From: Amphiscolops sp. MND2022
Taxonomy: Eukaryota
Reading direction: 5' to 3'
NCBI GenBank assembly: GCA_964187785.1
Contig: OZ076409.1
Span: forward strand, 20,400,001-20,464,000
DNA length: 64,000 bases
The position numbers and the translations under genes were made by a program. Under the pieces are notes generated by a model, which saw only the letters and a list, made by a program, of their open reading frames with translations, did no database searches and was not told the DNA's origin. Shown piece after piece: positions 9,042-60,280 of this stretch (position 1 is its first letter; each line of letters opens with the position of its first letter).

Positions 9042-9385
9042 AGGTCAGGGACATTTCGTCACCAACCATTTGGGCGACAATATGGCGTCGGTCACATGGG
9101 CGACGAAAGTGTCGACCAAATGGGGTGATCAAATTGATCAATTAACTGATATATTTGAAGAGGTTAGCATGTTTGTTGTATGGCTCGGTCGCTTTGCTCC
9201 CTTCGCCAAGTAGCAACATTGAGGCATGGCCATATGGCACGTCGCTCCGCTTGGCTTCGCTCCTGCATTTATGGCACTAGGGGTATGTGAACATATTTGA
9301 CGGGACATTTGGGCGACATTATTGTCCCTGAAATGGGCTGAAACTTTTGTCGCCCAAATGGCTGGTGACGAAACGTCCCTGCCCC
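9042..9385. mobile_element. MITE (TIR family A) carrying core cassette 1
   Basis: TIRs AGGTCAGGGACATTTCGTCACCAACCATTTGGGCGACAA / TTGTCGCCCAAATGGCTGGTGACGAAACGTCCCTGCCCC; 8-bp TSD CTGGAAAC/CTAGAAAC; core 1 at 9175-9297. Confidence 0.8.
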
Positions 9386-9896
9386 CTAGAAACGATAGCT
9401 ATTCGGTGACCAGCTCCGCGTTTACTGACGATAACCGGTTGAGATCTTCCTCCTGAAGCGGATTCTTCGATTATTCCATTTTCAAAAAAGATTCTACAGG
9501 TTCTTTTAATAATTGCTGATCGGCGTTCGAATAACGCCTAATGGGACACCTCTTTTGTTACGCGTTGTCGGTGAGATCAATTATTGGAGTTGGTGCAGTT
9601 TCGAGCTGACTATCTTTCAGCTGTCTGTCGATACAATCAGAAAAATCGCTAACAATTGACGTAACGTTTGAGCTTGTTGGTCGAACAGACAAAACTAAAG
9701 GCGCGACCTCCCCTCCAGTTTTTGAAGTGACTTCGCTAAAATGCATCAGTGAGTCGAGCCCAAATAGAGCGTCGAACTCGAGATTTGAAATAACGCGTTA
9801 TTCTACATTAAACGTGTGGCCTCGCAAAGTCAAGCGACACCAGCGGCGCCAAACTTCTTTCAGCATTGTCCCGGTAATTCATTGCAATGAATCTGC

Positions 9897-11485
9897 TGTC
9901 AAAGTTTGCCATCCGCCTCGCAAGGAGGGAAGGATCGAATGATGAGCCCGGACCCCTAAGGTTCAAGTACCTGCCAGATGACATCGCACACACAATTTTT
10001 GATGCCGCACATTGATGTACCTGTTTGTGCGATACAACAGACAACTCTTGATACCGCACATGTTTTGTTGAGTGACAGGTACCTGTCGCGGTGCTATATA
10101 TACCCGATGCTGAACCACTTCTACCATCAATTGCAAATATAAATTTTTAAACCAAGTCTGATCATAACTAATCAATCTCAATTCTGTTCTTCATTCCTAC
10201 CGAACTTCTTTTAAAAGGTTATGGGCCCAGCAGCTTCCCAGGCGACGCCATCTACCTAGCTGATCACAGCCGCACCAGCGCAGATCACGATGACGGCACC
10301 ACGACACTCTCGACAAGAGAAGCTGCTGTTTAGTGGACGAGAGGATGACTTCCCCACTTTTCTGGAGCAATTCGAAGCAAGAGTTTATGCCCTGGGACTT
10401 TCTGACTGCCTTCTGGACAGAATCAAAACAACACCTCTGCACCTTGGCCTCAGACGGGGCTCTCGAGTTCAAATCAAAGCAGTTCAGTGACTTGTGCACA
10501 TCCAATGGCATCAAACAGGAGTTCGCTGCTCCCTACACACCCGAAGAAAACGGCAAAATTGATCGAGCATGGGGCACTGTGACTGGCATGACGCGATGCA
10601 TGATGGCAACTGCAGGGGTCCCAAAGCAGTTCTGGCCTTTTGCTCTTTCAACTGCGATCTACCTGAAGAAACGATCAATCCACCCGGCGCATGGCAAGAC
10701 CCCTTTTGAGATGTTTCACGGAAGCAAGTCTGACCTTTCACATCTTCACGTGTTTGGGTGCCATTCGTGTGTGCTCAACAAAGTCAGGAAGCAACTGGAC
10801 AGCAAGGCACGGGAAGCTATTTTACTGGGATACTCGGGAAATTCTATTCCATATGTGGTTGCCTCAACAGATGGACCAGACACAAGGGCACCAAAGGTCT
10901 GGATATAACGAAACGTCAACTTCAACGACGATGCATTTCCTTACCAACGTGGTTCTGCAGTCACCCAACGGGAGAGCGAGGACAATGATGCATCTGAATT
11001 GGATGTTGATGATCTCAAACCCGTGTCATATGAACAATGCGAGGCTACTTTTACGGAAACCCATGCAATCCAGAGCGAATCAGAAGATAACACCAATCCA
11101 GATGAAGGGACACCCAATGTTACAGACATTACAACAGCAGTGCAGCAGACGACAACCAGATGTTCGGGAAGGACTCGAAGCGCGCCTCAACCTATGTGAC
11201 GGGGAGAGAATTGGAGAAACTGGCACTTCACTGTGATGCTTTGATTTCAAGCGGCCTTCCAAGCAATACAGCAGACGCCCTGGCGGATCCCAACTGGAAA
11301 GCAGCGATGGACAGAGAGTTCAAATCACTGGAAGAAAATGTTGTCTGGGAGCTAGTCAAGCCACCATCAGGTCAAGGCATCATCAGCGGTAAGTGGCATT
11401 TTGCTCATAAATTAGATGACGAAGGAAACGTGGTAAAGTACAAGGCGCGATTCGTGTCACGGGGGTTCACTCAGAGGCCAGGCAG
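9897..11485 (+). mobile_element. Ty1/Copia LTR retrotransposon, internally deleted and 3'-truncated
   Basis: ~320 bp LTR (9897-10216, matches 48742-49061 inverted); copia-type PBS GGTTATGGGCCCAG at 10217-10230; gag start (MTAPRHSRQEKLLFSG) fused to integrase core (APYTPEENGKIDR, FWPFA, HLHVFGC); start of RT (WKAAMDREFKSLEEN...YKARFVSRGF). Confidence 0.9.
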
Positions 11486-11678
11486 GTCGTTCTTACCGCG
11501 TTAATTACAACTCGGTTGCTGTTTTCGTTGAACGAAGTCGTTCTTCGATTAACTCTTATAACCCTGCAATCCTCACCTGCCTTCCTTCAGTGTCAATTCT
11601 ATTTATACTATTTACTTTGTTCTGGAATCAATGATAGAAAGCCATTTGTACTGCCACATCCCGAAGGTTAATTGATTA

Positions 11679-11707
11679 TCTTCTTCTTCTTCTTCTTCTT
11701 CTTCTTC
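11679..11707. repeat. (TCT)n microsatellite
   Basis: About 9-10 tandem TCT units read directly. Confidence 0.9.
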
Positions 11708-11719
11708 GGGCTACGCTTG

Positions 11720-13540: not shown

Positions 13541-13564
13541 GCCTCTAGTTAAAACATGAATTTT

Positions 13565-16814: not shown

Positions 16815-17370
16815 GGTAAATGGTCATTTGGCCTAATGCCATTTGGCTTAAAGTCATTTGGCTTAATACAATCGGTCACTTGGCTTAACTTTTTAAGCTA
16901 AGTGTCTCGGGTATTGGTCACTTGCCTTAAAGTCATTTGACTTAAGAACACTTAGTTGAAAACACGTGGCAGTTGTTGTCGAATTTATCTTTATAACGTA
17001 GTCAGCATAATATTATAACATGTCATATCAAGTACTCCTCGGATATGTCCCCGTTTCCTCTAGTGCCCTGCGGCCCCTTGGGACCGCTTTTATTCCCATC
17101 TTGCTAAGCGAGGTCGAACAGGAGCAAAGACCTAGCGGGAACGAAGATCGCGAAGCGATTGTCGTGGGAGCTGGTCTTTGCGACAGTTAGGGCGAGCGTG
17201 CATACACCGCGTATGCCCCACATTATGATGTTTCCGGGAGTTGACATATTTATTCCTTGAGTTGGAATGGAGTTAGCTTAACTTTGTGGTCACCTGGCTT
17301 AAAACTTTTTAGCCAAATGACTCGACGAAAAAAATAGGCCAAATGGTATTAAGCCAAGTGACTGGTAACT
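16815..17370. mobile_element. MITE (TIR family B, CATTTGGCTTAA-type subterminal repeats) carrying core cassette 2
   Basis: Ends GGTAAATGGTCATTTGGCCTAAT / ATTAAGCCAAGTGACTGGTAAC(C/T); TSD TTCCAATA (16807-16814) and TTTCAATA (18984-18991, displaced by a later insertion); core 2 at 17060-17223. Confidence 0.7.
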
Positions 17371-17376
17371 TTTCAA

Positions 17377-17716
17377 GGGTGGCTGTAAAGAGGTCGAATT
17401 TTTCTGGTCGAAAGGGCAGAAGTCGAACCTTTTGATCGAATTGCAGGGATCGAATGGAGTGCGGTGGAATTCGATCGTATTTGTTGTAAGGCTCGGTCGC
17501 TTCGCTCCCTTCGCCAAGTGGGCAACATTGAGGCATGGCCATATGGCACGTTGCTTCGCTTCTGCATTCAGGGCACTAGGGGTATGTGAACATAACTGAC
17601 TACGTTAAAAAAATTTCGATCCGAGTTGTTTCGATCCCATTCAAAAATTTGGTATGTCGACCTGAGAACTAACTCTGATTTTCGATCCCGTTCCTTCGAC
17701 CTAGTTCCGCCCACCC
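17377..17716. mobile_element. MITE family C copy 1 (core cassette 1)
   Basis: Ends GGGTGGCTGTAAAGAGGTCGAA / TTCGACCTAGTTCCGCCCACCC; near-identical to 18642-18980 and, inverted, to 54383-54742. Confidence 0.85.
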
Positions 17717-18641
17717 ACGTTCCACGATACTTCAGAGGCTGTCGTTGAACTTCCAAACCTAGCTGCGGTACATGAAACATATTCGTGCTAACACTTCAAG
17801 TGAAAATCGATGAGCTCTTATGTGTGAAAAGACTTTCTACATTTTTATCAATTTTGCCTCTCGTTGAATGAACGACTTAGTTCAAAAGTTCACAAACAGA
17901 GATCATAAACATTCTTTATACAGCTTCGTTCGAACAGCTCATCAGACGGATATCTTCGATTTTTGAAAAAGATAACTCGAAGTACTTTCTTTTGGAGCAA
18001 AAGTATGTCCTTCAATTTACTTTTCTTCGTGCAACCGTATACTAAGACCGTATTAAATGATAGGCTTCATGTAAATGTTGGAATATCTGATCACTATTGA
18101 ACTTTTACAAAAATGTCTCAACCGCATTATCACTGATACATGTTTAGCCAATTTACCAGGTAAACTTCGAACAAGGGCAAGGAAGGTCAGATTTTCATTC
18201 CAGGTGAACATCCAGATATTTCACAGAGTGATTTGGTTGGACACATGATAGTATTTACCAATTTCACATTTTCATCCCGTCAGCTCAAGAAGTGCACAAG
18301 CTCAGTCTTTCCACTATGAAGGCTCAATTTAATTTTTGCCATCTACGACGGTATATGCTAAACTTCATTTTGAAGTGTCGACATAGAATTTTTCGGTCGG
18401 TTATAGACACAGTTGGTATCATTTTCGAACTTATTACCGTGCCCCCAAAGTAGAAATACTAAAACGGGGGACTACCCTCTTCACACAGGGCATCACACAA
18501 AAACTGTATCAGCCAGACACTCACTCTTTATTCAGTTTTGGATGTTACAGAGACTTTTGCTCAGCTCTCGACTTTCGCATATCTCGTAATCAGGAGGCAA
18601 AAGTTTTTTCCTCAGAAGGTGATTCAGTAGTAACGTTCCAC

Positions 18642-18980
18642 GTATGGCTGTAAATAGGTCGAATTTTTATTGTCGAAAGGACAGAGGTCGAACCTTTTGA
18701 TCGAATTGCAGGGATCAAATGGAATGCGGTCGAATTTTATCGTATTTGTTGTATGGCTCGGTCGCTTCGCTCCCTTCGCCAAGTATCAACATTGAGGCAT
18801 AACCATATGGCACGTCGCTTCGCTCCTGCATTCAGGGCACTAGGGGTATGTGAACATATCTGACTACGTTATAAAAATTTCGATCGGAGTTGTTTCGATC
18901 CCATTCAAAAATTTGGTATGTCGACCTCAGGACTAACTCTGATTTTCGATCCCGCTCCTTCGACCTATTTCCGCCCACCC
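18642..18980. mobile_element. MITE family C copy 2 (core cassette 1)
   Basis: Direct repeat of 17377-17716; left terminus altered (GTATGGCTG instead of GGGTGGCTG). Confidence 0.85.
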
Positions 18981-19920: not shown

Positions 19921-20148
19921 CCATTAATGACATTCTGATTTTTTGAATGAGTTTGAACTCTGACTGAACTTTGTTTATCAGTTTTTTTTTGAAAATTTTG
20001 TTCCAATTTATTGCAAAAATTGTCAATTATTCATTGCAAGAATTCCAAAAAACCAAATGTTTAACGGACCTGTTTTTTTCAGCAATTATTGATCACCTTT
20101 TAATTGCCTACCGCTGTATTCAGTTGAAGCTCATAATTTCAGTGTGGC

Positions 20149-23100
20149 ATGCAACGGTTTCTGGTTGCAAAAACGCTTTTCAGTCGTTCTTGCAATTTCA
20201 CTGAACGGAACAGAAACCTTCTTCAATCGACTTTCAATTTAGCATTGGTAGCTCGGAAAGACTTCTTTTTCACTGGTCACTGTTGTGCTGATGTCGTTCC
20301 GTACAAGCTATCGGATATTGGAGAAGGGATCCGTGAAGTTGTCATAAAAGAATGGTTTGTGAAAGAAGGTGATGTGGTAAGTCAGTTCGATCAGATCTGT
20401 GAAGTGCAAAGCGACAAAGCATCAGTCACAATCACGAGTCGGTATGATGGCGTTGTGCGGAAGCTCCATTATGATGTGGATGATACTGCACTTGTAGGTC
20501 AACCTCTGGTCGACATAGAAACTGAAAAAGGTTGAGTTAAATTTTGTTGAATTCATTGCTGTATACTGTATAAAGTTAGGACCAAAACGTGATTACTCAG
20601 GAAATGATCGACGCAGATGAATCGGGAAACCTGAGGAAGGTTTATTCAGTTGTCAAGCAGTTAGCAGGAAAGCGGTCAGCTATCAGCGAGACAGTGAAAA
20701 ATGCTGACGGCCACCCGGTTCAAGATGCAAAGCAAAGAATAGAAGAATGGGCTAACCATTTCGAGAAGCTACTGAACCGACCACCACCCGCCACTGCCAA
20801 CCTGACAAAAAACCTACACAATCCCCTCTCCGAAATAAACACAGATCCGCCCACTCTCAGTGAAGTACAAGTAGCCATAAACAAGCTGAAAAGAAACAAA
20901 GCCGGCGGATTGGACAATAATACCCCCCGAATTCTACATAGACGGTGGTATCACACTCGAAAAGGTGCTGACCGAACTCCTACAATGTATTTGGACAAAA
21001 TGCTGCATGCCATCGGAATGGAAGACCGCCGTAATTGTTCCCCTATTCAAAAAAGGCGATAAAACAAACTGCGCAAATTATAGGTGTATCTCCCTTCTAA
21101 ATTTTGCTTGCAAGATCCTCCAAGCGGTTTTAAAGAACCGACTAGAACCAGCATACAAAGGTCGCCCCAACCAAGCTGGCTTCAAAAAGAACAAAGGATG
21201 CCGGGACCAAATCTTTGCAATACGACAGATCCTAGAACAACGTGAAGAGTTTAAGAGGCTGACCAACCTCATCTTCATAGATTTCAAAGCCGCGTTCGAT
21301 AGCGTTGATCGCAACTGCATCTGGCGTATTTGTAAAGACCTTGGCCTACCAGACAAACTTCTAGACGTTCTCCAAATGCTCTACTCGGAAACCTACAGCC
21401 GAGTCCGAGTATAGAAGACCATGTCACGCCAATTCAGCATTCTCAGTGGAGTGCGACAAGGCTCCATTTTATCCCCCTTTCTGTTTAACATCGTAATCGA
21501 TTGCATCATGGAACAAGCTCTCGAAGACGAAAATGTAGGCGTCGCGTTGGATGACATGACAATTGCTGACCTTGACTTCGCCGACAACATCTGTTTGCTT
21601 GACGACAACGGCACAGATGCCCAAAGGCTACTCGACAAAGTAACCAACTACGCTGCTTTAGTAGGCCTCCATTTAAATGTCGGCAAGACCAAATTCTGCG
21701 CCCACGACATCAACCAGAAGTTCCACGTTTATGGTGAAGAACTAGAGCGAGTCGAGGACTTCACCTATCTTGGAAGCAAGATCCAACTTGATGGAAATGT
21801 AACATCAGAAATCAAGGCCAGGATAGCGAAAGCTGCAGGTAGTTTCAACAATTTGAAAAGAGTTTGGAACCAGAGGAGTATCCCACAGCCAGTAAAAGTG
21901 AAAGTCTACAAGGCGTGCGTGAGAAGAGTTCTGTACGGATGCGAGAGCTGGCCAGTTAAGGAATCCGACCTAAGCAGCTTACAGTCCTTCGAAAACCGCT
22001 GTCTGCGACGTATATTCCATAAGGGACATGACATGCCCAACTCATTGATCACTTCACTGCAAAATGTGACCCTCTTGCCCCTACGATACAAAAGAGACGC
22101 TTGAAATGGCCAGGACATGTACTCCGTATGAAGTCCTCGGAAATTCCTAATGCAGTAGTTGAGTTTGAAAAAGGTGAAAACTGGAGAAGACCCCCGGCGG
22201 CGTACGCAAATCCTGGCGAAAAATTGTCCGTGAAGAGGTGAAGAAAGTTGTAAAACCGCCAAAGATGACGCTGAAGAAGTGGGAGGCACAGTGGTTTGAT
22301 CTGTGTAAAGAAACAGCCCAGAACAGAAGCCAATGGAGAGCAGTTATTCGCGACCTGAATGTGGCGGGCTAAGGGCAGCATTGCCTGTACAGCCCTATAT
22401 GGATATATATGGAAAACGTGATTATTGGAGCAAATCGGAAAATTATTTTTTCACGTGTTCATGCAATCGAATGTAGTGTTGGCCGGTAACCGATACTAGT
22501 ATCTACTAGTCACCAAAAGTTTATCCGGAATATGATATCTGATGACCTCCGCAGCCGCAGAGCATGAAATTCCCAAAGTTCGAAGCATGAGAAAAACGCG
22601 TATTCAGTATTTTTTGTGATTGATTCTGTAACTCAGTTTCTTGAGTTGAAATCTAGACGGAAATTTTCGCTCCTTTTTAGTGCACTATCGGTATGTGAAC
22701 GTAGCTAATCACGATTCCCTAATTCAGATTTTTACCTGATACCGTAAGAGCATAGTAGTATAACCATGTATGAGCTCTTTTCAATACATAGTGATAAAAT
22801 TTTGAAGTGCTGCTTCGAGCACTGAAAGTTGGAGATTTCATCAACTCATTTTGATTCACTTTGAAAAGCAGAATTAATGGAAAATTAGCGGATTCAGATT
22901 TGAAAATTATTGGAAACATAACATTAACTCAGCGAATACAGTTGATGATAATCAGCCTCATTAGTCTCCAGTGAGCGGATTAGTGCCCAATGGTTGTTTT
23001 AATTGAAAAGTAAGGATTTTTCACTCGACGCGTGAAAATATTCACTTGATTACCTATTCTGATTTGAATAGACTAATGATAAAAGTATCAAGACAAAGGC

Positions 23101-33052: not shown

Positions 33053-33494
33053 GGTCGCGGGACAAAATAGCCGATTTTCAAAACGAGACAAAACAGCCGA
33101 TTTTCAAAACAAGACAAACAGCCGATTTTGAAAATGGAACAAAATGAGTGTTGTTACAGCCAATAAGAATAGAACTTGATTAATTTGAAGAGGTTCATAT
33201 TAGTTGTATGGCTCGGTCGCTTCGCTCCCTTCTCCAAGTAGCAACATTGAGGCATGACCATACGGCACGTCGCTCCGCTTCGCTCCTGCATTTAGGGCAC
33301 TAGGGGTATGTGAACATAGCTGACTACGTTGTAATAATAATTTTATTGACTGCTAATCCTACGCATTGACAAAATAGGCTATTTTTATTTCTACCAATCG
33401 GCAATTTTGTACGGTTTTAAAATCGGCAGTTTTGTCCTATTTTGAAAATCGGCTGTTTTGTCCCGTTTAAAATCGGCTGTTTTGTCCCGCTCCC
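33053..33494. mobile_element. MITE (ACAAAACAGCCGATTTT family) carrying core cassette 1
   Basis: TIRs GGTCGCGGGACAAAATAGCCGATTTT / AAAATCGGCTGTTTTGTCCCGCTCCC; 8-bp TSD TTTGAAAC/TTCGAAAC; core 1 at 33203-33334. Confidence 0.85.
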
Positions 33495-33585
33495 TTCGAA
33501 ACTAGAATATTAAATGAACAAAATCAATGGGAAAAGTTTTGGCCATTTGAACTGCTCATATTTTTTTAAATCTATAAATTGTCTA

Positions 33586-40414: not shown

Positions 40415-40993
40415 GGCATGAAACCAGTTTGTAGAAAAGCAGTTGCTAGAATCCAGCTTGTAGAAAAGTGAGGTTCAGTTTGTAGATTTTTTTCTACACA
40501 CTGGACCATGGTACTATTTTGAATTAGATCCAGTTTGTAGAATACCAGTTTGCAGAAATCATCAATTCAAGAAGAAAAACAATAAGATCAATAACGTAGG
40601 AATGCTGCAAAGTATAAAACGTGCCTCGAATTCGTCCCAAATTCCTCTAGTGCCCCGCGGCCCCTTGGGGCCGCATATGTTCCCATCTTGCAAAGCGAGG
40701 TCGAAGAGGAGCAAAGACCTAGCGGGAACGGAGATCGCGAAGCTATCGTAGTGGGGGCTGGTCTTTGCGACGGTGAGAGCTAGCGTGCATACACCGGATA
40801 TGCCCCACATTTCAGTTTTTAGATCTCATTCCCTTAGATCTCAGGCAGTGGAGCTCTCAGGGTCTTGTGTGGAGGATCTTCAGTTTGTAGAATTTAGTGA
40901 TCCAGTTTTTAGAAAAAAATACTACAAACTGGACCACCTAGGACCAATTTGTAGAATTCTACAAACTGATATTCTACAAACTGGACCTAATTC
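40415..40993. mobile_element. MITE (CCAGTTTGTAGAA family) carrying core cassette 2
   Basis: Ends GGCATGAAACCAGTTTGTAGAA / TTCTACAAACTGGACCTAATTC; 8-bp TSD GACTGTCA/GATTGTCA; multiple CAGTTTGTAGAA subterminal repeats; core 2 at 40647-40810. Confidence 0.8.
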
Positions 40994-45790: not shown

Positions 45791-45829
45791 CGATGTTCCG
45801 TGTTCCAGGAACTGTTAGCGACAGAGATG

Positions 45830-47330: not shown

Positions 47331-49061
47331 ATTTCCCACGACCTCATGCTGCAACTTTGCCACATCGTGCCAGTTGTTGTGCCCCATCACTCGATGCCAG
47401 TGCTTGATAGAGTGCGACATCATTGCCAGTGACCCCGTCTCCACAGGTTGAGCCATCACACTGAAAAGTTCGTCGTTTGTCATCAATGGCACAACAGTTC
47501 CATTGGGCATCTTGATGGTTGGGTTGTCATTGAACTGAGTAATTGCCCCCTCGTCCGTCAATCGCTTGACCGACACCAGATTTCTCGCGTAGGATGGTAC
47601 CCAGAAGGCATCCCTCAGTTCGACTAGACAAGAACGGCCAGTATTGTCCTTCACAAAGCATCGCACTGTCCCACGTCCTGTGACCTCTCAACGACTGCTG
47701 TTAGCGTTGCATACGTCTGCTAGAAAACCCTCGTCCAGATCAGAGAAGAGCTCTATGTTCTTGATCATGAAGCCGTTGCACCCAGAGTCAATGAGAAACT
47801 CAACGCTCCCCTTGTCGTATCAACCAGCCCTGAAAGTCCCGAAGTTGAAGAAGTCCGCTGAAGAATGGTTGCTGGATTGACCCGAGCCACATCCTCCAAG
47901 ATGAAGCCAGATGCCCCTTGTGACCACAGTTGAAGCAAGTCCTCGTCTCTCGACTGTGGCTGTCCTTAGCTCGGTTCCCATCTTTCCACACTTGAAGCAT
48001 TTTGGAGGCTTCCTCCCGGCTGAGTGAAATGCTGTCATCCATGTCTCGCTGGAAACACAGAGACCCCTGATTGCTGCGAAGTTGACCAAGTCCTGCTTCA
48101 TTTCGCCCCTTTGCTCTGCCGAAGATGAGGACTGCCACCACACTGTCGAAGTCACTTGGAAGACCCTTGAGAGTCATCGCTGTGAAGAGAGCATCTGAGA
48201 GCAGTTCCCCCGCTTCAGCCAGATACAGTTTGAGCCCTTCTGTATTGGTGAGGAAGTCAGTCACCTTCGCCCCTGATGTCATCTTGAGACCAGTGAGCTG
48301 TTTCATCAGTGACTGAACAGGAGGCCGTTCAGTTGATTTGTGGAGCTTCGTTAAAGTTGTCCTGTCCAGGCTGCAGTCCCATTCGGTTTGAGCCCTCTGG
48401 TGAAGTTGATGCTTCCCTTGTCAGGGCACTGAACCAGCTCGCACCACACGATGTACTGTAGTTTAGCTCGATCTGCTTCTTCCCCCGCTCTCTTGACACG
48501 TTCGTCTTTCGTCTCCACATCTTTTTGAGGTGTTGTTTTGATTATGTCCAGAAGGCAGTCAGAAAGTCCCAGGGCATAGACTCTAACTTCGAACTGCTCC
48601 AGGAAAGTGGGGAAGTCATCCTCTCGTCTACTAAACAGCAGCTTCTCTTGTCGAGAGTGTCGTGGTGCCTTCATCGGCGCTGGTGAGGCTGTGATCAGCT
48701 AAATAGATGGCGTCGTCTGGGAAGCTGCTGGGCCCATAACCTTTCAAAATAGGTTGGGTCGGAATGAAGAACTGAATTGAGATTGATTAGTTATGATCAG
48801 ACTTGGTTTATTTATTTACAATTGCAATTGATGGTAGAAGTGGTTCGGCATTGGGTATATATAGCACCGCGACAGGTACCTGTCAATCAACAAAAAATGG
48901 GCGGTATCAAAAGTTGTCTGGTGTATCGCACAAATAGGTACAAGAAAGTGCGTCATCAAAAGTTGTGTGTGCGATGTCATCTGGCAGGTACTTGAACCTT
49001 AGGGGTCGTGGCTCACCATTCGATCATTGCCGCCTTGCGAACCGGATGGCAAACCTTTACA
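47331..49061 (-). mobile_element. Ty1/Copia element, same family as 9897-11485 (LTR, gag, protease, GAG-pre-integrase; truncated)
   Basis: LTR 48742-49061; PBS reverse complement at 48728-48741; gag MKAPRHSRQEKLLF; zinc knuckles CFKCGK and CFNCGHKGH; protease FLIDSGCNG; HWHRVMGHNN. Confidence 0.9.
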
Positions 49062-52000
49062 TGGACAAACATTCTAAGGTTGAAAATATCTGTAGGGTCC
49101 GGAACGGAACAAGTTTCCCTCTGCGGATGTTTCAGCTTGAGGGCAGCGTAGTTGTCGACCGTGAAATCTGCAATTTTGTCGTCGCCTACTGCCATTCTGA
49201 TTCTGGCCTTAACATTACCTTCGTCAAATTTAATGCAAATGGAAATTAATTGAATATGATTCAAGGAGTTTGCAAAATTTGGCGAGCAGAAAAGTCAAAT
49301 TTTGTATTTCTTACAAAAGAATGTCGTGCCTGTTCGTATCAAAGGCCTCTTCAAAGTCGAATAAGAAGAGTGTAACCAATCAACAATCTGAATAATGGAG
49401 TATTTCTCACCTAGCTTCAGCAGTAATCTCAAGATTGGTGATCCAGTTCGTATTGTTCGAACAATATTACGATAAACGTATTAGAGTATAGGAGGGATAG
49501 CATCTGGACCTCGCCTTTTAGATATTACCAATTTCTTTGCAGTTTGACTTATCTGATCTGTACAAAATTGAAGTCAAAGGATCCCAACTCGGTGTATTCT
49601 AGCATTATTGTTGCGCTAGTCCATTTTTGGAGGCAAAGACTTTCTCTTGATATGTTGCAAGATCCTCAGCAGTTGCAATATCAATCTCTTTTCTTCAGCT
49701 CATAACGATTTCGCTTTGAATTACTGTGTGGTTGTTTTTCATTCACTCTTTTGATGGTTGAGAGTCTATTCGAGGTATCAGGTGTAATCAAAGGGAGAGA
49801 CTTCTGTGTTGCGTTCTCCTTGGAGTGGTGGATTCCAGTTTTTCAGAAATCCAAGCATACCATTCTTCAGCTGTTTGGCCACTGTTGCTAAAAGACTTGG
49901 CCATAAAAGGTTCAATTATGAGTAGTTTGTTGGTATGAGTAGTTCAATTGGTATGAGTAGTTTGTTGGTCGTTTTTCTTTGTTTGTTTCAGTCTTCTGTG
50001 ATAGTGGCTAGTGTGGGGTTTTCTTGTTTTGTGCAGACCACGGGTGTGTCTTCTCCCCCCAAGTTCGATGACACACATGACACTTGATTGATGATGACGA
50101 AGATCCATGGTATTGGGCTGCGAAAAAAATTACTGACGTTTACCAGCTTTTTCAACGAATTTAATCGACTAACTGGTAGACAGAAGAAGAAAAGTAACTT
50201 CATAATCGCAGACAATGATAACAAATTGAACACAGATGATTTTCCCGTATCAAACGTGTTCAATGAGAAGTGCGTTTCGATAAGCAATGTTTAGCTACTT
50301 CAATTCCCACTGTTCCATTCACTACTGAAGGATTATGTAATAATGACAAGAGTCACTTTTATTCTATCCAAATGATTCCCTGGAAATTTTTAAATTTGTA
50401 CGGAACATTGAGAACCATAAAGCGGCCGGATTAGATGGGCTAACTGCTGAAAGTTTGAAGGTTAGTCTTGATGTGATTTGTGATAGCCTGACCTACCTTA
50501 TCAACCAATCGTTATCAAGTGATGTTTTCCCGAAATTTTTGAAAACTGCGAAAATGGTTCCAAGCATTAGATCTGGGGAAAAAAGCAATTGTGAGAATTA
50601 TGGACCCATATCATATTTATCGGTTCTGAGCAAAGTCTTTGAGCAGGTAGTTTTCGAGAGACTGTATAAATTCATGCATGTAAACAATCTTTTCTATTGT
50701 CGTCAATTCGGATTCAGATCAAAAATGAGTACACTGCTTGCACTAACGGACATAATGGAACTGATCCAGAGTAATGCCCTTCTTGATGTATCCCGTATGC
50801 TATTAGATCTAAGAAAAGTTTTTGATACGATAAATCATGAAATTTTGTTTTTCAATTTAGAGAGGTATGGTTTGAGAGGCATTTGTTTAGAAAGGTTCAG
50901 GTCATATCTCAATGATCGCACCTACAGCGTCGCAATTAATAGTCAGTATTCAAATACCCTAGCTGTTGAGTGTGATGTACCACAAGGATCGATTCTAGGA
51001 CCGCTTATGTTTCTAATATACGTCATTGACTTTCCAAGCTCTTGTGATGATATTGTACCGTTCTTGTAGACAAATGATACCAACTGTGTCTATAACCGAT
51101 CGAAAAATTCTATGTCGACACTTCAAAATGAAGTTTAGCATATACCGTTGTAGATAGCAAATTAAATTGAGCCTTCATAGTGGAAAGACTGAGCTTGTGC
51201 ACTTCTTGAGCTGACGGGATGAAAATGTGAAATTGGCAAATACTATCATGTCTCCAACCAACTCACTCTGTGAAGTACCTGGATGTTCACCTGGAATAAA
51301 AATCTGACCTTCCTTGCCCTTGTTCGAAGTTTACCTGGTAAATTGGCTAAACATGTATCAGTGATAATGCGGTTGAGACATTTTTGTAAAAGTTCAATAG
51401 TGATCAGATATTCCAACATTTACATGAAGTCTATCATTTAATACGGTCTTAGTATACGGTTGCACGAAAAAAAGTAAATTGAAGGACATACGTTTGCTCC
51501 AAAAGAAAGTACTTCGAGTTATCTTTTTCAAAAATCGAAGATATAGGTACAAGAAAGTGCGTCATCAAAAGTTGTGTGTGCGATGTCATCTGGCAGGTAC
51601 TTGAACCTTAGGTCGTGGCTCACCATTCGATCATTCCCGCCTTGCGAACCGGATGGCAAACCTTTACATGGACAAACATTCTAAGGTTGAAAATATCTGT
51701 AGGGTCCGGAACGGAACAAGTTTCCCTCTGCGGATGTTTCAGCTTGAGGGCAGCGTAGTTGTCGACCGTGAAATCTGCAATTTTGTCGTCGCCTACTGCC
51801 ATTCTGATTCTGGCCTTAACATTACCTTCGTCAAATTTAATGCAAATGGAAATTAATTGAATATGATTCAAGGAGTTTGAAAAATTCGGCGAGCAGAAAA
51901 GTCAAATTTTGTATTTCTTACAAAAGAATGTCGTGCCTGTTCGTATCAAAGGCCTCTTCAAAGTCGAATAAGAAGAGTGTAACCAATCAACAATCTGAAT

Positions 52001-54149
52001 AATGGAGTATTTCTCACCTAGCTTCAGCAGTAATCTCAAGATTGGTGATCCAGTTCGTATTGTTCGAACAATATTACGATAAACGTATTAGAGTATAGGA
52101 GGGATAGCATCTGGACCTCGCCTTTTAGATATTACCAATTACTTTGTAGTTTGACTTATCTGATCTGTACAAAATTGAAGTCAAAGTATCCCAACTCGGT
52201 GTATTCTAGCATTATTGTTGCGCTAGTCCATTTTTGGAGGCAAAGACTTTCTCTTGATATGTTGCAAGATCCTCAGCAGTTGCAATATCAATCTCTTTTC
52301 TTCAGCTCATAACGATTTCGCTTTGAATTACTGTGTGGTTGTTTTTCATTCACTCTTTTGATGGTTGAGAGTCTATTCGAGGTATCAGGTGTAATCAAAG
52401 GGAGAGACTCCTGTGTTGCGTTCTCCTTGGAGTGGCGGATTCCAGTTTTTCAGAAATCCAAGCATACCATTCTTCAGCTGTTTGGCCACTGTTGCTAAAA
52501 GACTTGGCCATAAAAGGTTCAATTATGAGTAGTTTGTTGGTATGAGTAGTTCAATTGGTATGAGTAGTTTGTTGGTCGTTTTTCTTTGTTTGTTTCAGTC
52601 TTCTGTGATAGTGGCTAGTGTGGGGTTTTCTTGTTTTGTGCAGACCACGGGTGTGTCTTCTCCCCCCAAGTTCGATGACACACATGACACTTGATTGATG
52701 ATGACGAAGATCCATGGTATTGGGCTGCGAAAAAAATTACTGACGTTTACCAGCTTTTTCAACGAATTTAATCGACTAACTGGTAGACAGAAGAAGAAAA
52801 GTAACTTCATAATCGCAGACAATGATAACAAATTGAACACAGATGATTTTCCCGTATCAAACGTGTTCAATGAGAAGTGCGTTTCGATAAGCAATGTTTA
52901 GCTACTTCAATTCCCACTGTTCCATTCACTACTGAAGGATTATGTAATAATGACAAGAGTCACTTTTTTCTATCCAAATGATTCCCTGGAAATTTTTAAA
53001 TTTGTACGGAACATTGAGAACCATAACGCGGCCGGATTAGATGGGCTAACTGCTGAAAGTTTGAAGGTTAGTCTTGATGTGATTTGTGATAGCCTGACCT
53101 ACCTTATCAACCAATCGTTATCAAGTGATGTTTTCCCGAAATTTTTGAAAACTGCGAAAATGGTTCCAATCATTAGATCTGGGGAAAAAGCAATTGTGAG
53201 AATTATGGACCCATATCATATTTATCGGTTCTGAGCAAAGTCTTTGAGCAGGTAGTTTTCGAGAGACTGTATAAATTCATGCATGTAAACAATCTTTTCT
53301 ATTGACGTCAATTCGGATTCAGATCAAAAATGAGTACACTGCTTGCACTAACGGATATAATGGAACTGATCCAGAGTAATGCCCTTCTTGATGTATCCCG
53401 TATGCTATTAGATCTAAGAAAAGTTTTTGATACGATAAATCATGAAATTTTGTTTTTCAATTTAGAGAGGTATGGTTTGAGAGGCATTTGTTTAGAAAGG
53501 TTCAGGTCATATCTCAATGATCGCACCTACAGCGTCGCAATTAATAGTCAGTATTCAAATACCCTAGCTGTTGAGTGTGATGTACCACAAGGATCGATTC
53601 TAGGACCGCTTATGTTTCTAATATACGTCATTGACTTTCCAAGCTCTTGTGATGATATTGTACCGTTCTTGTAGACAAATGATACCAACTGTGTCTATAA
53701 CCGATCGAAAAATTCTATGTCGACACTTCAAAATGAAGTTTAGCATATACCGTTGTAGATAGCAAATTAAATTGAGCCTTCATAGTGGAAAGACTGAGCT
53801 TGTGCACTTCTTGAGCTGACGGGATGAAAATGTGAAATTGGCAAATACTATCATGTCTCCAACCAACTCACTCTGTGAAGTACCTGGATGTTCACCTGGA
53901 ATAAAAATCTGACCTTCCTTGCCCTTGTTCGAAGTTTACCTGGTAAATTGGCTAAACATGTATCAGTGATAATGCGGTTGAGACATTTTTGTAAAAGTTC
54001 AATAGTGATCAGATATTCCAACATTTACATGAAGTCTATCATTTAATACGGTCTTAGTATACGGTTGCACGAAGAAAAGTAAATTGAAGGACATACGTTT
54101 GCTCCAAAAGAAAGTACTTCGAGTTATCTATTTCAAAAATCGAAGATAT
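48934..54149 (+). repeat. Tandem duplication, ~2609-bp period (48934-51542 and 51543-54149)
   Basis: The unit starts inside the Copia LTR and ends inside the LINE. Copies differ by scattered substitutions and small indels (e.g. AGGGGTCG vs AGGTCG). Confidence 0.95.
50050..51542 (+). mobile_element. CR1-like LINE RT fragment (first copy)
   Basis: ORF 50455-51069: NYGPISYLSVLSKVFE, QFGFRS, LDLRKVFDTINH, VPQGSILGPLMF. Confidence 0.85.
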
Positions 54150-54938
54150 CCGTCCGATGAGCTGTTCGAACGAAGCCCTATGATGAATGTTTTTGATCTC
54201 TGTTTGTGAACTTTTGAAATAAGTCGTTCATTCAACGAGAGGCAAAATTGATAAAAATGTAGAAAGTCTTTTCACACATAAGAGCTCATCAATTTTCACA
54301 CGAAGTGTTAGCACGAATATGTTTCATGTACCGCAGCTAGGTTTGGAAGTTCAACGACAGTCTCTGAAGTATCGTGGAACGTGGGTGGGCGCAACTAGGT
54401 CGAAGGAACGGGATCGAAAATCAGAGTTAGTCCTCAGGTCGACATACCAAATTTTTGAATGGGATCGAAACAACTCGGATCGAAATTTTTATAACGTAGT
54501 CAGATATGTTCACATACCCCTAGTGCCCTGACTGCAAAGCGTGCCCCGGAGCGAAGCGAAGCGGAGCGACGTGCCATATGGCCATGCCTCAATGTTGATA
54601 CTTGGCGAAGGAAGCGAAGCGACCGAGCCATACAACAAATACGATAAAATTCGACCGCATTCCATTCGATCCCTGCAATTCGATCAAAAGGTTCGACCTC
54701 TGTCCTTTCGACCAGAAAAATTCGACCTATTTACAGCCACCCGTGGAACGTTACTACTGAATCACCTTCTGAGGAATAAACTATTGCCTCCTGATTACGA
54801 GATATGCGAAAGTCGAGAGCTGAGCAAAAGTCTCTGTAACATTCAAAACCGAATAAAGAGTGAGTGTCTGGCTGATATAGTTTTTGTGTGATGCCCTGTG
54901 TAAAGAGGGTCCTCCCCCGTTTTAGTATTTCTTCTTTG
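52657..54938 (+). mobile_element. CR1-like LINE RT fragment (second copy, extends toward the 3' end; interrupted by MITE C)
   Basis: Duplicate of 50050-51542 plus downstream sequence; resumes after MITE C at 54752 and probably again after 58970. Confidence 0.8.
54383..54742. mobile_element. MITE family C copy 3
   Basis: Inverted copy of 17377-17716 with a perfect 9-bp TSD GTGGAACGT (54374-54382, 54743-54751); core 1 at 54489-54636. Confidence 0.9.
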
Positions 54939-55236
54939 GGGGCACGGTAATAAGTTCGAACGCATAGCGAGGTCGAACAGGAGCAAACAGGGTTCTCAAA
55001 CTCAAACTCAAACTTTCAAACTCAAACTCAAACTTTCAAACTTTTAGGTTTCAAACTCGAATTCAAACCAAACTTCATTATATTGTCAAACTCAAACCCA
55101 AACTCAAGCTCACGAAAAAAGTTCAAACAGTTTGAGTTGTTTGACTATTTCTTAATATAGCGCAGATGGCTATAATTTTTTCATTTTTATCAAAATTTTG
55201 GCAATATGATTCAAAAATTTTTTTAGATCGTATGGT

Positions 55237-56719
55237 ATGGGCAAGTCGTCTCCGAAGGAAGACTGGCGTCCACTTGCAACCAAAAATCTGCGGCTCAGGG
55301 GAAAGTTTTTGTGCGGTTATATAGATAAGAAGAAAACTAATTTGAAAAGATTCATAGCTTGTAATTTGGATATTTGGTGCAAAAACGGAGTCACGTCACC
55401 CTTGGTGCGTCATGTTGATACCTGTGTTGGATCAAGTCCCGTTATGGAAGAGAATTAATCATTGTTTAAGTTTCATTCTGGAAAGAGCAGAAAATATAAT
55501 CTAGCACAGCGTCTAGTTTACAATTCCAATATTTCTGTTAACAAGATTTGCACTTCCAAAGAGTTTTCGGAATTATTTAAGTTGGCGAAGCTTGAAATTC
55601 AAACATACTCTGAATTACAGGAAAGTCTTACAAACTCATTCCTTGAAAGAATTGAGTCTGTATCCAATTTGCTGGCTGCAAATGATCCGCTGGTTTTGTG
55701 TTTGGACAAGTGGACTAACGACCACGACGAAAAATTCATCGGAGTATATGTTTTTCAAAAGCGAAAAAAAGATATTTTTAGGCCTTGCACACGTTCTGAA
55801 TATTCTCGCTAAGAAGCTAATTGGAATTGACGCAAATTTTTTTGTTCCCGGAGATGATGAAACTGGAGATGAATTGGATGACATTTTTGCGTTATGGGTC
55901 TCAGGAGATGTCAAAACTGCGGTTAAAGATCTCAAAAAACCGTCAAATCTTCAGGATTTTCTAGCAATTCAAAAGATAAAACAACCAGAGTTGAAATCAC
56001 CGTTGAAGCCATTGCTCGAAAATGCAACAAGATGGAATTCTACTTATCTCATGCTTAATCGATTTTTAGTTTTGCAAAAGTCCATTACCGCGTTTACTCA
56101 GAATAGTTATAATTGGGACGAAATCAAGAAGCTAAGAGATTTACTTCATCCATTGTACGAGGTAACCATGAAATCGCAATGTGGAATTGAGAAATCTGCT
56201 CACCCGTTTGATTTTTATGTTCAGTGAGTTGATTACATTCGATCATATTTGCAACAAGAAAAGTCTATGACCGACGTTAGGAATCCCGTTATGCAGCTTC
56301 TTAATAAGTGGTGTGGTACCAATAACGTTGTCATACAAGCATTTAAGAAATCTGGTCCATTGTATGACAAATTGATTGGTATGGTAACTGATGTCGATAA
56401 TTCGCCAAATTCAAGGGCTGACGATCATCCGTATACTGCCGATTCAAATAATTCATTTGACGCCTATTTAGCGAAGCAAGGGAATTGTCCAGTTGATCAA
56501 TTGGTTACGTCAATTTTGGCTGATATTCCTGTTTCAAACACTGATTTGGAACGTTTATTCAGTTATGCAAAGTTTCTGAAAACTTCAATTCAAAGTCGCA
56601 TGGATCCAGAGAATTTTACTCGTAACATCTTTCTGAAGATGACTGAGGAGCTAAATTTGGTTGTTAGTATGAACACTGCCGCGCCAAAGGTGCTAACTCC
56701 AATTGTAATTGACAGTTGA
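55237..56719 (+). pseudogene. hAT transposase pseudogene
   Basis: LCLDKWT (first D), AHVLNI, NATRWNSTYLML and IPVSNTDLERLFS..QSRMDPE motifs; broken by stops, a frameshift and a probable deletion. Confidence 0.85.
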
Positions 56720-57254
56720 AACCATGTGCCATGTGCCATTCCATATTTTTTGTTAAAACATTTGTTGAAATTCCATATTTTTGTAAAACGTTTTTGTTAA
56801 AACATTTGTAAATCATTTTTTGTTAAAGCAATGTGTTTTATGCAAGTTACAAGAGGTGTTCGTTCATTATTCATAACAGTTTGTAACGTGTTTGCCTAAA
56901 TTTCAAACTATTCAACAGTTTTCAAACTACCAAACTCAAACTCAACTTCTAAAGTCAAATCAATCTCAAACTCAAACTACTTGGGTTCAAACATTCAAAC
57001 TTCAAACCAGGTTGCTTCAAACGTTTGTGCTTTATTATTGGCTGTTATACGGCAGACGAAACAAATCAATTCTGTAGATGTGTTCTATGTGCCGCAAATA
57101 CCCTAGACAATTATCATATTTGTGTCTGTCCGAAACTACCTGACACGAGCTGTATCGACCGAGTGAAGTTTATGCTTTTCTCTGAAGTGACACCTATCCT
57201 GGAGCCTAAAACCAAAAACGAGTTAATGTTTGAGAAAAAAATGTACTGTAATGA

Positions 57255-57515
57255 GGATTGCATGAAATGGGTCGAATGAAATAGGTCGAAAAGAATTAGG
57301 TCGACCCTTTTGGTCGAATAACTTAGCTCGAATTGACTGAGGTCGAATTTGGTCGAATGGACTTGGGTCGAAATCAATATGTTGTCTCCCTTGAACTTGG
57401 CATTTTTCAAGGTCGACCCAAGTCCATTCGACCCATTTCCGAAACGGTGAAGATTCGACCCATGGCACAGGAGGCCGATTCGACCCATTTCTTTCGACCC
57501 ATTTCCGTTCACCCC
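57255..57515. mobile_element. MITE (AAATGGGTCGAA family) nested in the hAT element
   Basis: Ends GGATTGCATGAAATGGGTCGAA / TTCGACCCATTTCCGTTCACCCC; perfect 8-bp TSD TGTAATGA. Confidence 0.8.
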
Positions 57516-57838
57516 TGTAATGAAAACCCTCAAGACCTATAATCTACTGAACTGAACAATATTTTCTTTCGGCTTCTTTGTTACCTATTTCATTAAATTT
57601 TAGATTGTATATGTCATAATTTTGACGTTAATTCATTCTTCAGTCAATCAATCAAACGTTTGAAAACCCTGGGAGCAAAGACCTAGCGGAAACGGAGATC
57701 GCGAAGCGATCGTAGTGGGAGCTGGTTTTTTGCGACGGTGAGGGCGAGTGTGCATACACCGGATATGTCCCACATTTCAGTTTTTAGATTCCTTCAGATC
57801 CTAGGCGGTGGAGCTCTCAGGGTCTTGTGTGAAGGATG

Positions 57839-58831
57839 GGGGCACGGTAATAAGTTCGAACCCATAAGTTCGAATTTTAATTTCGAATGGACTAAGTTCG
57901 ACTTTTCCAAAAACCGGAACAAGTTCGAATCACTGTGTTCGAATTTTGAACTAAGTAGAAAACGTGCCACTGATATTACCACATTTCATCTAGTGCCCCG
58001 CGGCCCCTTGGGGCCGCTTATGTTTCCATCTTGCTAAGCGAGGTCGAACAGGAGCAAAGACCTAGCGGGAACGGAGATCGCGAAGCGATCGTAGTGGGAG
58101 CTGGTCTTTGCGACGGTGAGGGCGAGCGTGCATACTCCTGGTATGCCCCACATTTCAGTTTTTAGATTCCTTTAGATCCTAGGCGGTGGAGCTCTCAGGA
58201 TCTTGTGTGAAGGATGTCCAGTTTACACCGGATATGCCCGATATGAAAATTCGAACTTGGTGTCTCGAAACGGTGGGGTATTTTTGGATCGAATTTTTGT
58301 GTGAGCGAAAAGCGAGATCGAAAATGGATCGAAGGTTTTGAGATCGAATTTTTCCGGTTTTGCTAGGTTTTTGCTCCTGTAAAGTGTTTAAAAGCGTTTA
58401 AAATTATTAAGGTAGTTTTCCCCACCTAATATGGGATCATATACGGTGTATGCACGCTCGCCCTCACCGTCGCAAGAACCAGCTCCCACTACGATCGCTT
58501 CGCGATCTCCGTTCCCGCTAGGTCTTTGCTCCTGTTCGACCTCGCTTAGCAAGATGGGAACATAAGCGGCCCCAAGGGACCGCGGGGCATTAGAGGAAAT
58601 GGGGGGCATATCCGACGGCCAAAAACATTGTTATTTGAAAACGCTAGGTATTTGAAAACATGGATTCGATCTCATTTTCTTTGACCATTTTACTTCGATC
58701 TCAGTGACAGATTGCATATTCGCGCAAATTCATTCGATCCAAACGCCCACCGCCTCTCGAAACTATTCCATTCGAACTTATTGCACTAGTTCAAATTCGA
58801 ACTTAGTAAATCGAACTTATTGCCCGAAGCC
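57839..58831. mobile_element. MITE family E inner copy (self-insertion)
   Basis: Same termini as 54939-58962; 8-bp TSD GAAGGATG/GAAGAATG; core 2 at 57990-58153. Confidence 0.85.
58272..58754. mobile_element. MITE (GATCGAA family) carrying core cassette 2 in reverse
   Basis: Ends GGTGGGGTATTTTTGGATCGAA / TTCGATCCAAACGCCCACCGCC; 9-bp TSD TCTCGAAAC; the empty site is visible in the outer E copy (GGTGTCTCGAAACTATTCC, ~58882). Confidence 0.85.
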
Positions 58832-59874
58832 GAAGAATGTCCAGTTTACACCGTAGATGCCCGATATGAAAATTCGAACTTGGTGTCTCGAAACTATTCC
58901 ATTTGAACTTATTGCACTAGATCAAATTCGAACTTAGTAAATCGAACTTATTGCCCGAAGCCCTACTTTGGAGGGTCCCCTTTGGTGTAGATAAATACTA
59001 ATGGAAAAAAATTGTTAACTATTTTTATATCTTATACTTTATTGTATTATAAATGTATATACTACACTAAAGTAAATTAACTTCTTTCGATAGTTGGAAG
59101 TTGCCCGTTTCTCAATGAGTTTTCGACCTTTTGGAAATTTTTCTGTTGACCTATTACTGGAAACTGTATTCGACTTTTGCCAGTCAAGTTTCCTGAAGAT
59201 TTATTCGTGGCCGACTGATTTTTCATTCTGGAACCTTCATTGTTAGGCACTCCCTCATTGAAAATTTAAGCGTCAGAGGAAATTGGATTGGGCTCCGTGC
59301 ACGATTTCTTTGATGAGCTTTTGTGTCCGCCAACGACATTTTTTTTATTTTGTCATTAAGTGACTTTTTCTTGATAGAAGTTAATTGTCTCGAGAGATTA
59401 GTTTACCTCACGGTAAACAGTTTGTGTTCAATGAGAATTTGAATTTCGAAAACTCCCAAAAATTTTGATCAGCTATCGACAATTCTCAAAGTTTCATCGA
59501 AGCGATAATGCAATATTTTTTATTCATAGAAGTTACAATAGTCAAGAATAACAATGGCCACTCATTACATTGGCTCCAAAATTTTATTTTTTGGTCATCT
59601 TTCAAGTTTTATAAGTTTTTAGGAACTACTTCAAAATTCTCTTGTCAATACCGGTACCAAAACTAGCGTTACTCCTCAGACAGCTGTTTGTCGTTCTTCT
59701 CTTTTGCACTGATTGACAGAGCTTCCATTTTTTATTTAAGTTTAAACATTTCAGCGTAAGCTTGGATTTTAAAACACGACTATCCTTCCTTTTTTGGATT
59801 CAATTAAAAGTTCAAATTTTCGAGTTGATAAAGATTTGAGCTCCTAAAGTCTTTTTTGAAGCTGATGGTTGAAC

Positions 59875-60280
59875 GGGGAATTCCCAAACAGCAGAAAATG
59901 AAAATTCGGTCCCATTCAGCAGAATATTTCTTTATGCTGCAATCTGATTGGCTGAAATTATGCTGCAAGCTGATTGAATTCACTATGATGAAAAATGCGG
60001 GTCAGATTTTGTCGGAATTATTATTATAACGTAGTCAGATATGATCACATACCCCTAGTGCCCTAAATGCAGGAGCGAAGCGGAGCGACGTGCCATATGG
60101 CCATGCCTCAATGTTGCTACTTGGCGAAGGGAGCGAAGCGACCCAGCCATACAACAAATATGCAAACCTTTTCAAATAAATCAAGTTTCTACATACTGGG
60201 TGTAACAACACTAAAAGCTAGTAATTGGAATTCTGCTGTATGGGACCGAATATTCATTTTCTGCTGTATGAATAGGCCCC
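59875..60280. mobile_element. MITE (CAGCAGAAAATGAA family) carrying core cassette 1
   Basis: Ends GGGGAATTCCCAAACAGCAGAAAATGAAAATTCGGTCCC / GGGACCGAATATTCATTTTCTGCTGTATGAATAGGCCCC; perfect 8-bp TSD GGTTGAAC; core 1 at 60024-60155. Confidence 0.85.

Follow-up and report, generated by a model that had tools for sequence, protein, structure and literature searches.

How can MITEs (miniature inverted-repeat transposable elements) with unlike TIRs (terminal inverted repeats) come to enclose one and the same interior? The question is raised by a 64-kb stretch of the Amphiscolops sp. genome (positions 20,400,001-20,464,000 of contig C1, within a 1.07-Gb assembly of 13 large contigs; hereafter the window), in which MITEs with different ends (shells, named by letter) carry one of two interiors, core 1 or core 2. 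We show that this is a real and large modular MITE system, unusual in its scale, in its crossing of the border between Mutator-like elements (MULEs) and Merlin elements, and in its visible intermediates. The mechanism by which the cores spread appears well supported by sequence comparison, and from the same comparison we infer a function for the core. Overall we hold, with moderate confidence, that these are MULE and Merlin MITEs with foreign passenger cores, which would have undergone serial shell replacement with intact cores being favoured.

Within the window, nhmmer and self-BLAST recovered six copies of core 1 and five of core 2, every one enclosed in a shell, in agreement with the eleven cassettes and their placement in an earlier reading made from the sequence alone (the sequence-only reading). 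The shell ends named there were likewise correct, with target-site duplications (TSDs) of 8 or 9 bp and no more than one mismatch at the ends checked. Its core lengths (~130 and ~165 bp) can be refined: core 1 measures 115-137 bp, and core 2 ~154 bp between the anchors common to all shells or ~185 bp with a short flanking direct repeat. Genome-wide, an exact 23-mer of core 1 matched 4,905 times and one of core 2 3,459 times, and reversed-pattern control 23-mers gave no genome match for either core; the 23-mer is present in 15 of 30 core-1 and 21 of 35 core-2 copies that were found by profile away from the search centre, and extrapolation from this share gives an estimate of ~10,000 core-1 and ~6,000 core-2 copies. 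Forty evenly placed 10-kb stretches (400 kb) held six core-1 copies and two core-2 copies.

For a census of free versus enclosed copies the listed matches were sampled at regular intervals: alternate ones among the first 84 for core 1 (two skipped; 40 copies, first 14 Mb of C1), and one in five among the first 100 for core 2, where a neighbour stood in for one window copy (20 copies, first 26 Mb of C1). By eye, at least one TIR-shell arm accompanied each of the 40 core-1 copies, where the arms had subterminal repeats, and each of the 20 core-2 copies; a script that searched TSD lengths of 8 and 9 bp only bounded 21 of the 40 by TIR and TSD, and validly bounded 10 of the 20. None of these 60 position-picked copies was a free core with its own TSD or tail, so that the enclosure seen by the sequence-only reading holds beyond the window in these parts of C1; rare free copies, or an autonomous source bearing a core, could still lie elsewhere in the genome. 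The core-1 census copies lay in shells B (12), S (10), W1 (3), D (2), X187 (2) and M, T, A and K (one each), the rest being one P/W1 chimera and six single new shells; two pairs resemble segmental duplicates. Over all data, 129 TSD-bounded copies formed 25 end clusters, one of them a false inner boundary, which leaves 24 terminal families with GG ends and TSDs of 8 or 9 bp, and about eight further shells were recognized by eye (dropped were L185 and L256, as false inner boundaries, an inner duplicate D call, and low-complexity and tandem-repeat calls). In 464 kb (the window plus the random sample) there were 13 GG-ended TIR and TSD calls versus one CC-ended call, and a core was present in 8 of 12 distinct GG-ended MITEs, or 4 of 7 within the 400-kb random sample. 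The ends of three copies did not resolve into a TIR pair (L086, core 1; L191:1966 and L242, core 2); the core-1 copy at L086:6020-6390 has a right end unlike those of the MULE and Merlin shells and might represent a third superfamily. A sequence block that is not a shell recurs beside B and F/U copies (L009, L010, L013, L018 and L201), which suggests a larger repeat serving as a favoured nest.

Transposase family searches gave 42 Merlin (PF12762) and 150 scored MULE (PF10551) matches, and 20 loci of each were fetched and their ends called. The sequence-only reading had asked whether autonomous elements share the shell TIRs and carry the core; partners were found for four core-1 shells, three of them MULE (L127 for X72, L137 for Q, and L123 and L128-L131 for D) and one Merlin (for M), and those partners lack the core. 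Merlin elements L115-L117 match MITE M at 92-94% over both arms (M 1-125 and 360-435), and L116 and L117 have PF12762 (DDE_Tnp_IS1595) above cut-off. D, Q and X72 are MULE-derived MITEs, their ends being common to elements that code for MULE transposase, and M is a Merlin-derived MITE, whose TIRs are common to a DDE_Tnp_IS1595-coding element. The TSDs are 8 bp in D and Q, read by eye with mismatches in X72, and 8-9 bp in the partners; M has GG termini and an 8-bp TSD in 22 of 22 bounded copies, and this ~435-bp MITE occurs with 8-bp TSDs at many sites (30 loci from a junction query). So many independent TSD-flanked sites imply past mobility of the MITEs. Altogether the core is absent from 25 of the 26 coding elements scanned, and the lone exception, L131, owes its hit to a D MITE that lies within the TIR and has a separate TSD. 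Since the coding partners lack them, the cores were not inherited from those partners, and the suggestion of the sequence-only reading that the cassette, as a transposition enhancer, was retained while TIR/transposase pairs diversified is contradicted if taken literally: the core was gained. No partner turned up in the 40 loci for shells A, B, C, E, F, G, H, S, U and others; their anatomy (G or GG ends, 8-9-bp TSDs, subterminal repeats, imperfect termini) resembles that of the MULEs found, and the commonest of them (B, S, C, G, E and U) are probably MULE MITEs, judged by architecture and by fit to the Muta-type MULEs in the accessible text of PMC5225508.

Two groups of coding elements deserve mention in their own right. 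L128-L131 (C10:484321-505762) form a tandem array of a 472-aa MULE element with a D MITE inside its own partner's TIR; of the four fetched units, three have this MITE in truncated form. L101-L120 comprise several compact Merlin families of ~1.2-1.4 kb, with 8-bp TSDs and open frames of up to 327 aa, which are candidates for active Merlin transposases.

How closely the cores agree is apparent from the family consensuses. For core 1 those of M, C and D are identical (0/120 differences), B differs at 1/115 and K at 3/120 positions; for core 2 those of G, U and E differ at 1-4/154, and single copies lie ~1-2% from their own family consensus. Three diagnostic core-1 sites read CGT in 23/24 B copies, TGG in 19/21 M and 8/13 C copies, and TGT in 4/4 D copies. 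Outside the core, similarity between shells ends at staggered points, and the families group differently to the left and to the right. In M a Merlin arm of 125 bp is followed by 234 bp (125-358) that are 91% like the D MITE, and then by a Merlin arm of 76 bp, and the interior retains the MULE subterminal repeat. MULE subterminal remnants inside M, together with a core identical to that of the MULE-derived D, set the order as MULE first and Merlin second; on this reading of the sequence, the Merlin MITE M captured the interior of a MULE MITE.

The idea of the sequence-only reading that the cassette is a passenger acquiring new transposon ends is borne out by nested, composite and arm-swapped intermediates. 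At L103 a Merlin MITE of the L158/L163 type, itself without a core, hosts a core-1 MITE; at L244, L257 and L258 a complete mini TIR element adjoins the core; and the window contains composite 17377-18980, in which a pair of B copies took along the ~925 bp between them. The sequence-only reading identified 17377-17716 and 18642-18980 as shell B, rightly, but took for separate elements what are the two ends of this single 1.6-kb composite. Arm-swapped chimeras (arm pairs B/M, M/K, U/E and P/W1) were found at L021/L022, L150, L019 and L235, although those at L021/L022 and L235 have no shared TSD by eye and may be deletion products. Moreover, one shell can hold either core: shell B measures 340 bp with core 1, and 499 and 535 bp with core 2 (L249, L253), with perfect 9-bp TSDs. 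Core-less forms exist as well, such as part of the Merlin family ends and MITE I, whose arms are ~73% like those of shell B.

We suggest the following course of events, in which the MITE ends would derive from different autonomous transposons (many MULE/Muta-like families and at least one Merlin) and be read by the transposases of these. Elements insert in tight nests, often into each other: of 31 TSD-bounded census copies, 6 lie within a further MITE that bears a core, whereas 88 of 7,896 background positions do (p ~1e-6). A MITE with a core would then enter one of another family that lacks it, or small MITEs without a core would land beside one, the situations seen in the intermediates. Next, the outer ends would move jointly, as they did in the composite of the window, while the old inner arms, present as layered remnants, would presumably be trimmed; recombination within the core would exchange arms, as in the chimeras. 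These four steps we regard as highly probable. In a fifth step, to which constraint and prevalence point, masters with an intact core would be favoured, most likely because the GC-rich core influences transposition in cis, for instance through a bound host factor or by leaving the element open to whichever transposase arrives; given capture, such a cis-acting helper role seems to us moderately probable. A bolder version, which we put forward tentatively and hold to be somewhat doubtful, is that the cores are a selfish cis-module above the level of the MITE, which would raise mobility or shield from silencing under any ends, independently of the transposase, and would outlast the turnover of transposon families by recruiting new TIR pairs across superfamilies, as a DNA-transposon counterpart of the central domains of short interspersed elements (SINEs), with cores 1 and 2 descending from one old module. 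The alignment of core 1 with reverse core 2 scored higher than 1,000 of 1,000 mononucleotide shuffles, a hint that the two may share an origin.

The evidence for the fifth step comes from constraint, besides the prevalence of cores among GG-ended MITEs given above. In five families that share a ~50-bp upstream extension, consensuses departed from the global consensus at 1/599 core but 10/253 extension sites (Fisher p 4e-5), whereas copy decay in the same families was 1.7% in the core and 2.8% in the extension; the ratio of flank to core divergence is thus ~24x between consensuses versus 1.65x in copy decay, which suggests selection on the core. Core 2 behaves similarly between G and U (2/149 core versus 6/33 upstream). 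An older core-2 subfamily, ~75-80% like the young one by BLAST, persists as several decayed copies, and in the old variants the core-2 stem has 86% of cells paired, with 6/18 pairs changed on both sides and only 2-5/500 shuffles as high.

Several points weigh against this interpretation. The constraint test covers five families, two of them with three copies, leaves indels uncounted and uses a core edge drawn by the analyst where conservation rises; a second core-1 pair, S and W1 (W1 from two copies), is weaker at 4/120 versus 5/55; and gene conversion could yield the same uniformity of the core. The stem test is weak, comprising 12 related sequences under a shuffle control that ignores relatedness, and 5-25% of unconstrained alignments pass on two measures of the pairing tool; relative to shuffles, core 1 has the poorer fold (z +1.5, +1.6), and the advantage of core 2 is only mild (z -1.8 to -2.3). 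Some MITEs lack a core (I, L070/L152, L158/L163, L051 and L199), and the Merlin family TIR end has 371 exact matches versus 167 for the core junction, so that only ~45% carry the core, which is accordingly dispensable. The commonest shells (B, S, C, G, E and U) are without a partner among the 40 fetched loci (20 of 42 Merlin, 20 of 150 MULE). Nesting, too, is regional rather than core-specific, a clustering over ~1 kb, the share of neighbouring MITE DNA being 9% at the junction, 9.5% at 50-250 bp and 4.5% at 650-1100 bp, with 1% at random; by family it occurs in 4/15 B and 1/24 coding elements, and in 0/13 C. Nested insertions hit a core in 6/14 cases against 26/88 background positions, and we rejected the core as a specific insertion target, this being indistinguishable from general nesting. 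The decay of CpG as a signal of age or methylation was likewise discarded, the genome-sample observed/expected ratio of 0.92 being uninformative.

The same captures would occur with an inert core. In such neutral hitchhiking the middle of abundant older MITEs would have been taken, and ectopic gene conversion among the estimated core copies would keep it uniform; we think this unlikely, yet it deserves serious weight. It would sit well with the strong local clustering of elements, with the recombination inside the core that the chimeras show, with the thriving of core-less families and of the roughly half of the Merlin family that lacks a core, and with the expectation that, when an element is trimmed again and again at either side, its middle is what is left. 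It has difficulty with the co-captured flank, which is equally alignable and nonetheless diverged between consensuses far beyond what copy decay predicts, with a minimal core that is nearly intact in more than 30 shells whose neighbouring sequence was lost at staggered points, and with the stem kept in old core-2 variants. Alternatively, the core might persist because of a function at the level of the host, as promoter or enhancer, or as a structured or non-coding RNA, with MITEs only spreading it, which we judge quite improbable. The cores are GC-rich (51% in core 1 and 59% in core 2, versus 38.6% in a genome sample), the core-2 stem tolerates G-T pairs on the + strand, and an old, unique core-2 variant (L012:685-835, -) lies upstream of a CCT6 (TCP-1 zeta)-like gene, ~210 bp from its start codon, where it could possibly be an exapted regulatory copy. 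That copy, however, has repeat motifs like those of an old Y30-type arm and no close relative, core copies decay by ~2% as the arms do (M core 2.1% versus 2.4%), and Rfam gave nothing at gathering score in the window; a lone GAIT hit, with E 4, fell outside the cores and is put down to chance. A small nucleolar RNA from a CCT6 intron at L012 was considered and rejected (no Rfam match, no conserved H box by eye, arm-like flanks).

Could each core instead be a small mobile element in its own right, of a Helitron/HINE or SINE kind, with TIR elements as its specific targets, much as the sequence-only reading also entertained? The sequence GGGCACTAG is found in either core, and in core 2 CTAG is preceded, at a distance of a few bases, by a strong hairpin, an arrangement reminiscent of a Helitron 3' end. 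Nevertheless, all CTAG sites in hand (155/155 in core 1, 83/83 in core 2) run into the same conserved sequence; genome-wide only four core-2 sites end in CTAG-T-H, and the three fetched are all point mutants inside shells. Helitron identity was therefore rejected, there being no CTRR end followed by T and unrelated flanks (the genome-wide end search covered core 2). Helentrons and HINEs have sub-terminal inverted repeats, a 3' palindrome and free insertion in TT, according to the accessible text of PMC4067079, and were set aside because none of the 60 census copies is free and the short repeat at the borders of core 2 is direct rather than inverted. Nor do SINEs fit, with no Rfam match and no poly(A) or other tail and no own TSD in the 60 copies. 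With its staggered outer boundaries, lack of an own TSD and lack of free Helitron-like ends, a self-moving core is largely refuted, and we consider it very improbable. An outside source found no better footing: a core-1 23-mer had no hit in viral contigs, and a bacterial origin was rejected, since of two metagenome hits to a core-2 18-mer neither extends over the core and one (L281) lies in a bacterial reading frame, both being taken as chance; a core-2 20-mer had a single match, itself uninspected, in 185,579 prokaryote genomes. Hardly tenable, finally, is the view that all shells are one old family that inherited its interior while the TIRs drifted. A few shells are indeed related (E/E2, D/D2/O, A/U, B/I), but Merlin and MULE proteins gave no significant alignment and have different Pfam domains, which refutes this view for the Merlin/MULE pair and upholds the claim of the sequence-only reading that the shells are not one diverged family. 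Core consensuses, moreover, are 97-100% identical while most arms have no BLAST hit to each other (just seven cross-family arm hits among 19 families), partners lack the core, and shell B holds either core.

The elements of the window are collected in the following table.

Mobile elements of the window, with the enclosed core and the TSD of each
Element	Position	Strand	Core	TSD	Remarks
Shell A MITE	9042..9385	+	core 1, ~9166-9302	8 bp, 1 mismatch	MULE-type ends
Shell E MITE	16815..17370	+	core 2, 17039-17223		
Composite of two shell-B MITEs	17377..18980	+		outer, 9 bp, 1 mismatch	
Left B of composite	17377-17716		core 1, 17474-17611		
Right B of composite	18642-18980		core 1, 18740-18875		
Shell C MITE	33053..33494	+	core 1, 33192-33335	8 bp, 1 mismatch	~55-bp shared upstream extension
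Shell F MITE	40415..40993	+	core 2, 40626-40810	8 bp, 1 mismatch	
Shell B MITE	54383..54742	-	core 1, 54488-54644	9 bp, perfect	
Outer shell G MITE	54939..58962	+	core 2, broken by nested insertions	8 bp, 1 mismatch	
hAT-like element, 2.7 kb	54988..57671	+		8 bp	inserted in outer G core 2
MITE I	57255..57514	+	core-less	9 bp	arms ~73% like shell B; hosted by hAT-like element
Inner shell G MITE	57839..58831	+	core 2, 57970-58153	8 bp, 1 mismatch	
Shell H MITE	58272..58754	-	core 2, 58432-58615	9 bp, perfect	nested in inner G
Shell D MITE	59875..60280	-	core 1, 60023-60164	8 bp, 0 mismatches	ends match coding MULE L123/L128-L131

The shell A family recurs at loci L098 and L221. In the inner left arm of shell E part of the core-1 3' end lies in inverted orientation (read from the sequence, and aligned as E 136-192 with the D copy), the composite is located in the right TSD of shell E, and the ~925 bp inside it include both flanks of the 54383 copy in permuted order. 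The core 2 of the outer G begins as a remnant from ~54960 and resumes at 57672-57775, so that the partial copy at 57672 belongs to the outer G; the hAT-like element that interrupts it has decayed transposase open reading frames (ORFs) at 55517-56719 and a hAT dimerisation domain (PF05699) at E 0.023 only, below cut-off. Elsewhere in the window there are near-perfect tandem duplications at 26173-31197 (2.5 kb, 99.9%) and 48925-54149 (2.6 kb, 99.2%), which are recent or assembly artefacts, and a 541-bp repeat of 90% identity (9897-10437 with 47283-49061) beside copia-like gag/integrase/reverse transcriptase fragments labelled from ORF reading, probably the long terminal repeats of decayed retrotransposons. 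Two animal-like genes are present, a DBT-type 2-oxoacid dehydrogenase E2 (exons 20137-25545) and a TANC-like NACHT gene (exons 60382-63207).

The system bears on a long-standing question, the origin of MITE families and why few of them amplify far beyond their autonomous partners, and it offers natural controls within one genome, where coding partners have long open frames, a given shell occurs with core 1, with core 2 or with neither, and a given core is found under MULE as well as Merlin ends. If an interior does boost transposition across superfamilies, it may serve transposon vectors. In practical terms, clustering repeats by similarity would here lump together or mislabel dozens of families on account of the core they share, and the 10,000-plus homologous cores are a substrate for ectopic recombination.

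Among retrotransposons, the CORE, V, Deu and Nin-domain SINE superfamilies have a conserved central module in non-autonomous elements that change their mobilising ends, with domains conserved across phyla; the elements described here, in contrast, are DNA transposons. For these we compared published systems as described in the accessible portions of the papers. In the literature searched, which was mostly non-subscription and without supplements, we found no report of one core common to MITEs of two superfamilies, and the accessible part of a paper on the Merlin/IS1016 superfamily (Lopes et al., 2021, PMC8101967) does not describe any Merlin MITE that encloses a MULE MITE's interior. The Merlin elements themselves agree with that paper in their GG termini, 8-bp TSD, DDE_Tnp_IS1595 transposase and ~1.2-kb coding elements. 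Similarly, the MULE side shares with Muta-type MULEs and Pack-MULEs (Liu and Wessler, 2017, PMC5225508) 8-9-bp TSDs, an imperfect terminal motif, subterminal tandem repeats and captured interiors, and, in the coding elements, a ~500-aa transposase with FLYWCH and MULE domains; unlike the heterogeneous interiors of Muta derivatives (PMC5225508), however, unrelated families here converge on two interiors. As in heteromorphic maize MuDR (Hunter et al., 2023, PMC10401008), TIRs become separated from their interiors by recombination, which leaves arm-swapped forms, whereas the exchange in maize takes place among the clades of one family and concerns coding interiors, with no shared non-coding core in the text accessible. 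A precedent for our fifth step is the internal enhancer of Stowaway Ost35, an interior that raised transposition in a yeast test even under other TIRs (summarised in PMC3660474); that case involves one Tc1/mariner system, and the summary reports no natural spread of the interior across families. The closest parallel is found in the CMITEs of Acropora corals (Wang et al., 2010, PMC2872659), elements of ~100 bp in six families, all piggyBac, with TTAA and a shared terminal motif. They show that the pattern of a shared interior under different TIRs, which the sequence-only reading took for the reverse of the usual MITE arrangement, is not unprecedented. In both systems families with different TIRs have a conserved interior, which is absent from the one autonomous partner identified for CMITEs, and in both the interior is more conserved between families than the TIRs; a role of the interior in transposition has been proposed and a composite derivative described for CMITEs as well (PMC2872659). 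A published CMITE 60-mer resembles neither core in a comparison by eye (PMC2872659), and there are no piggyBac ends or TTAA TSD here, the TSDs being 8-9 bp. Set against CMITEs, then, the Amphiscolops system comprises at least 24 families, two superfamilies and two cores, with one shell that carries either core and with intermediates of capture still in view.

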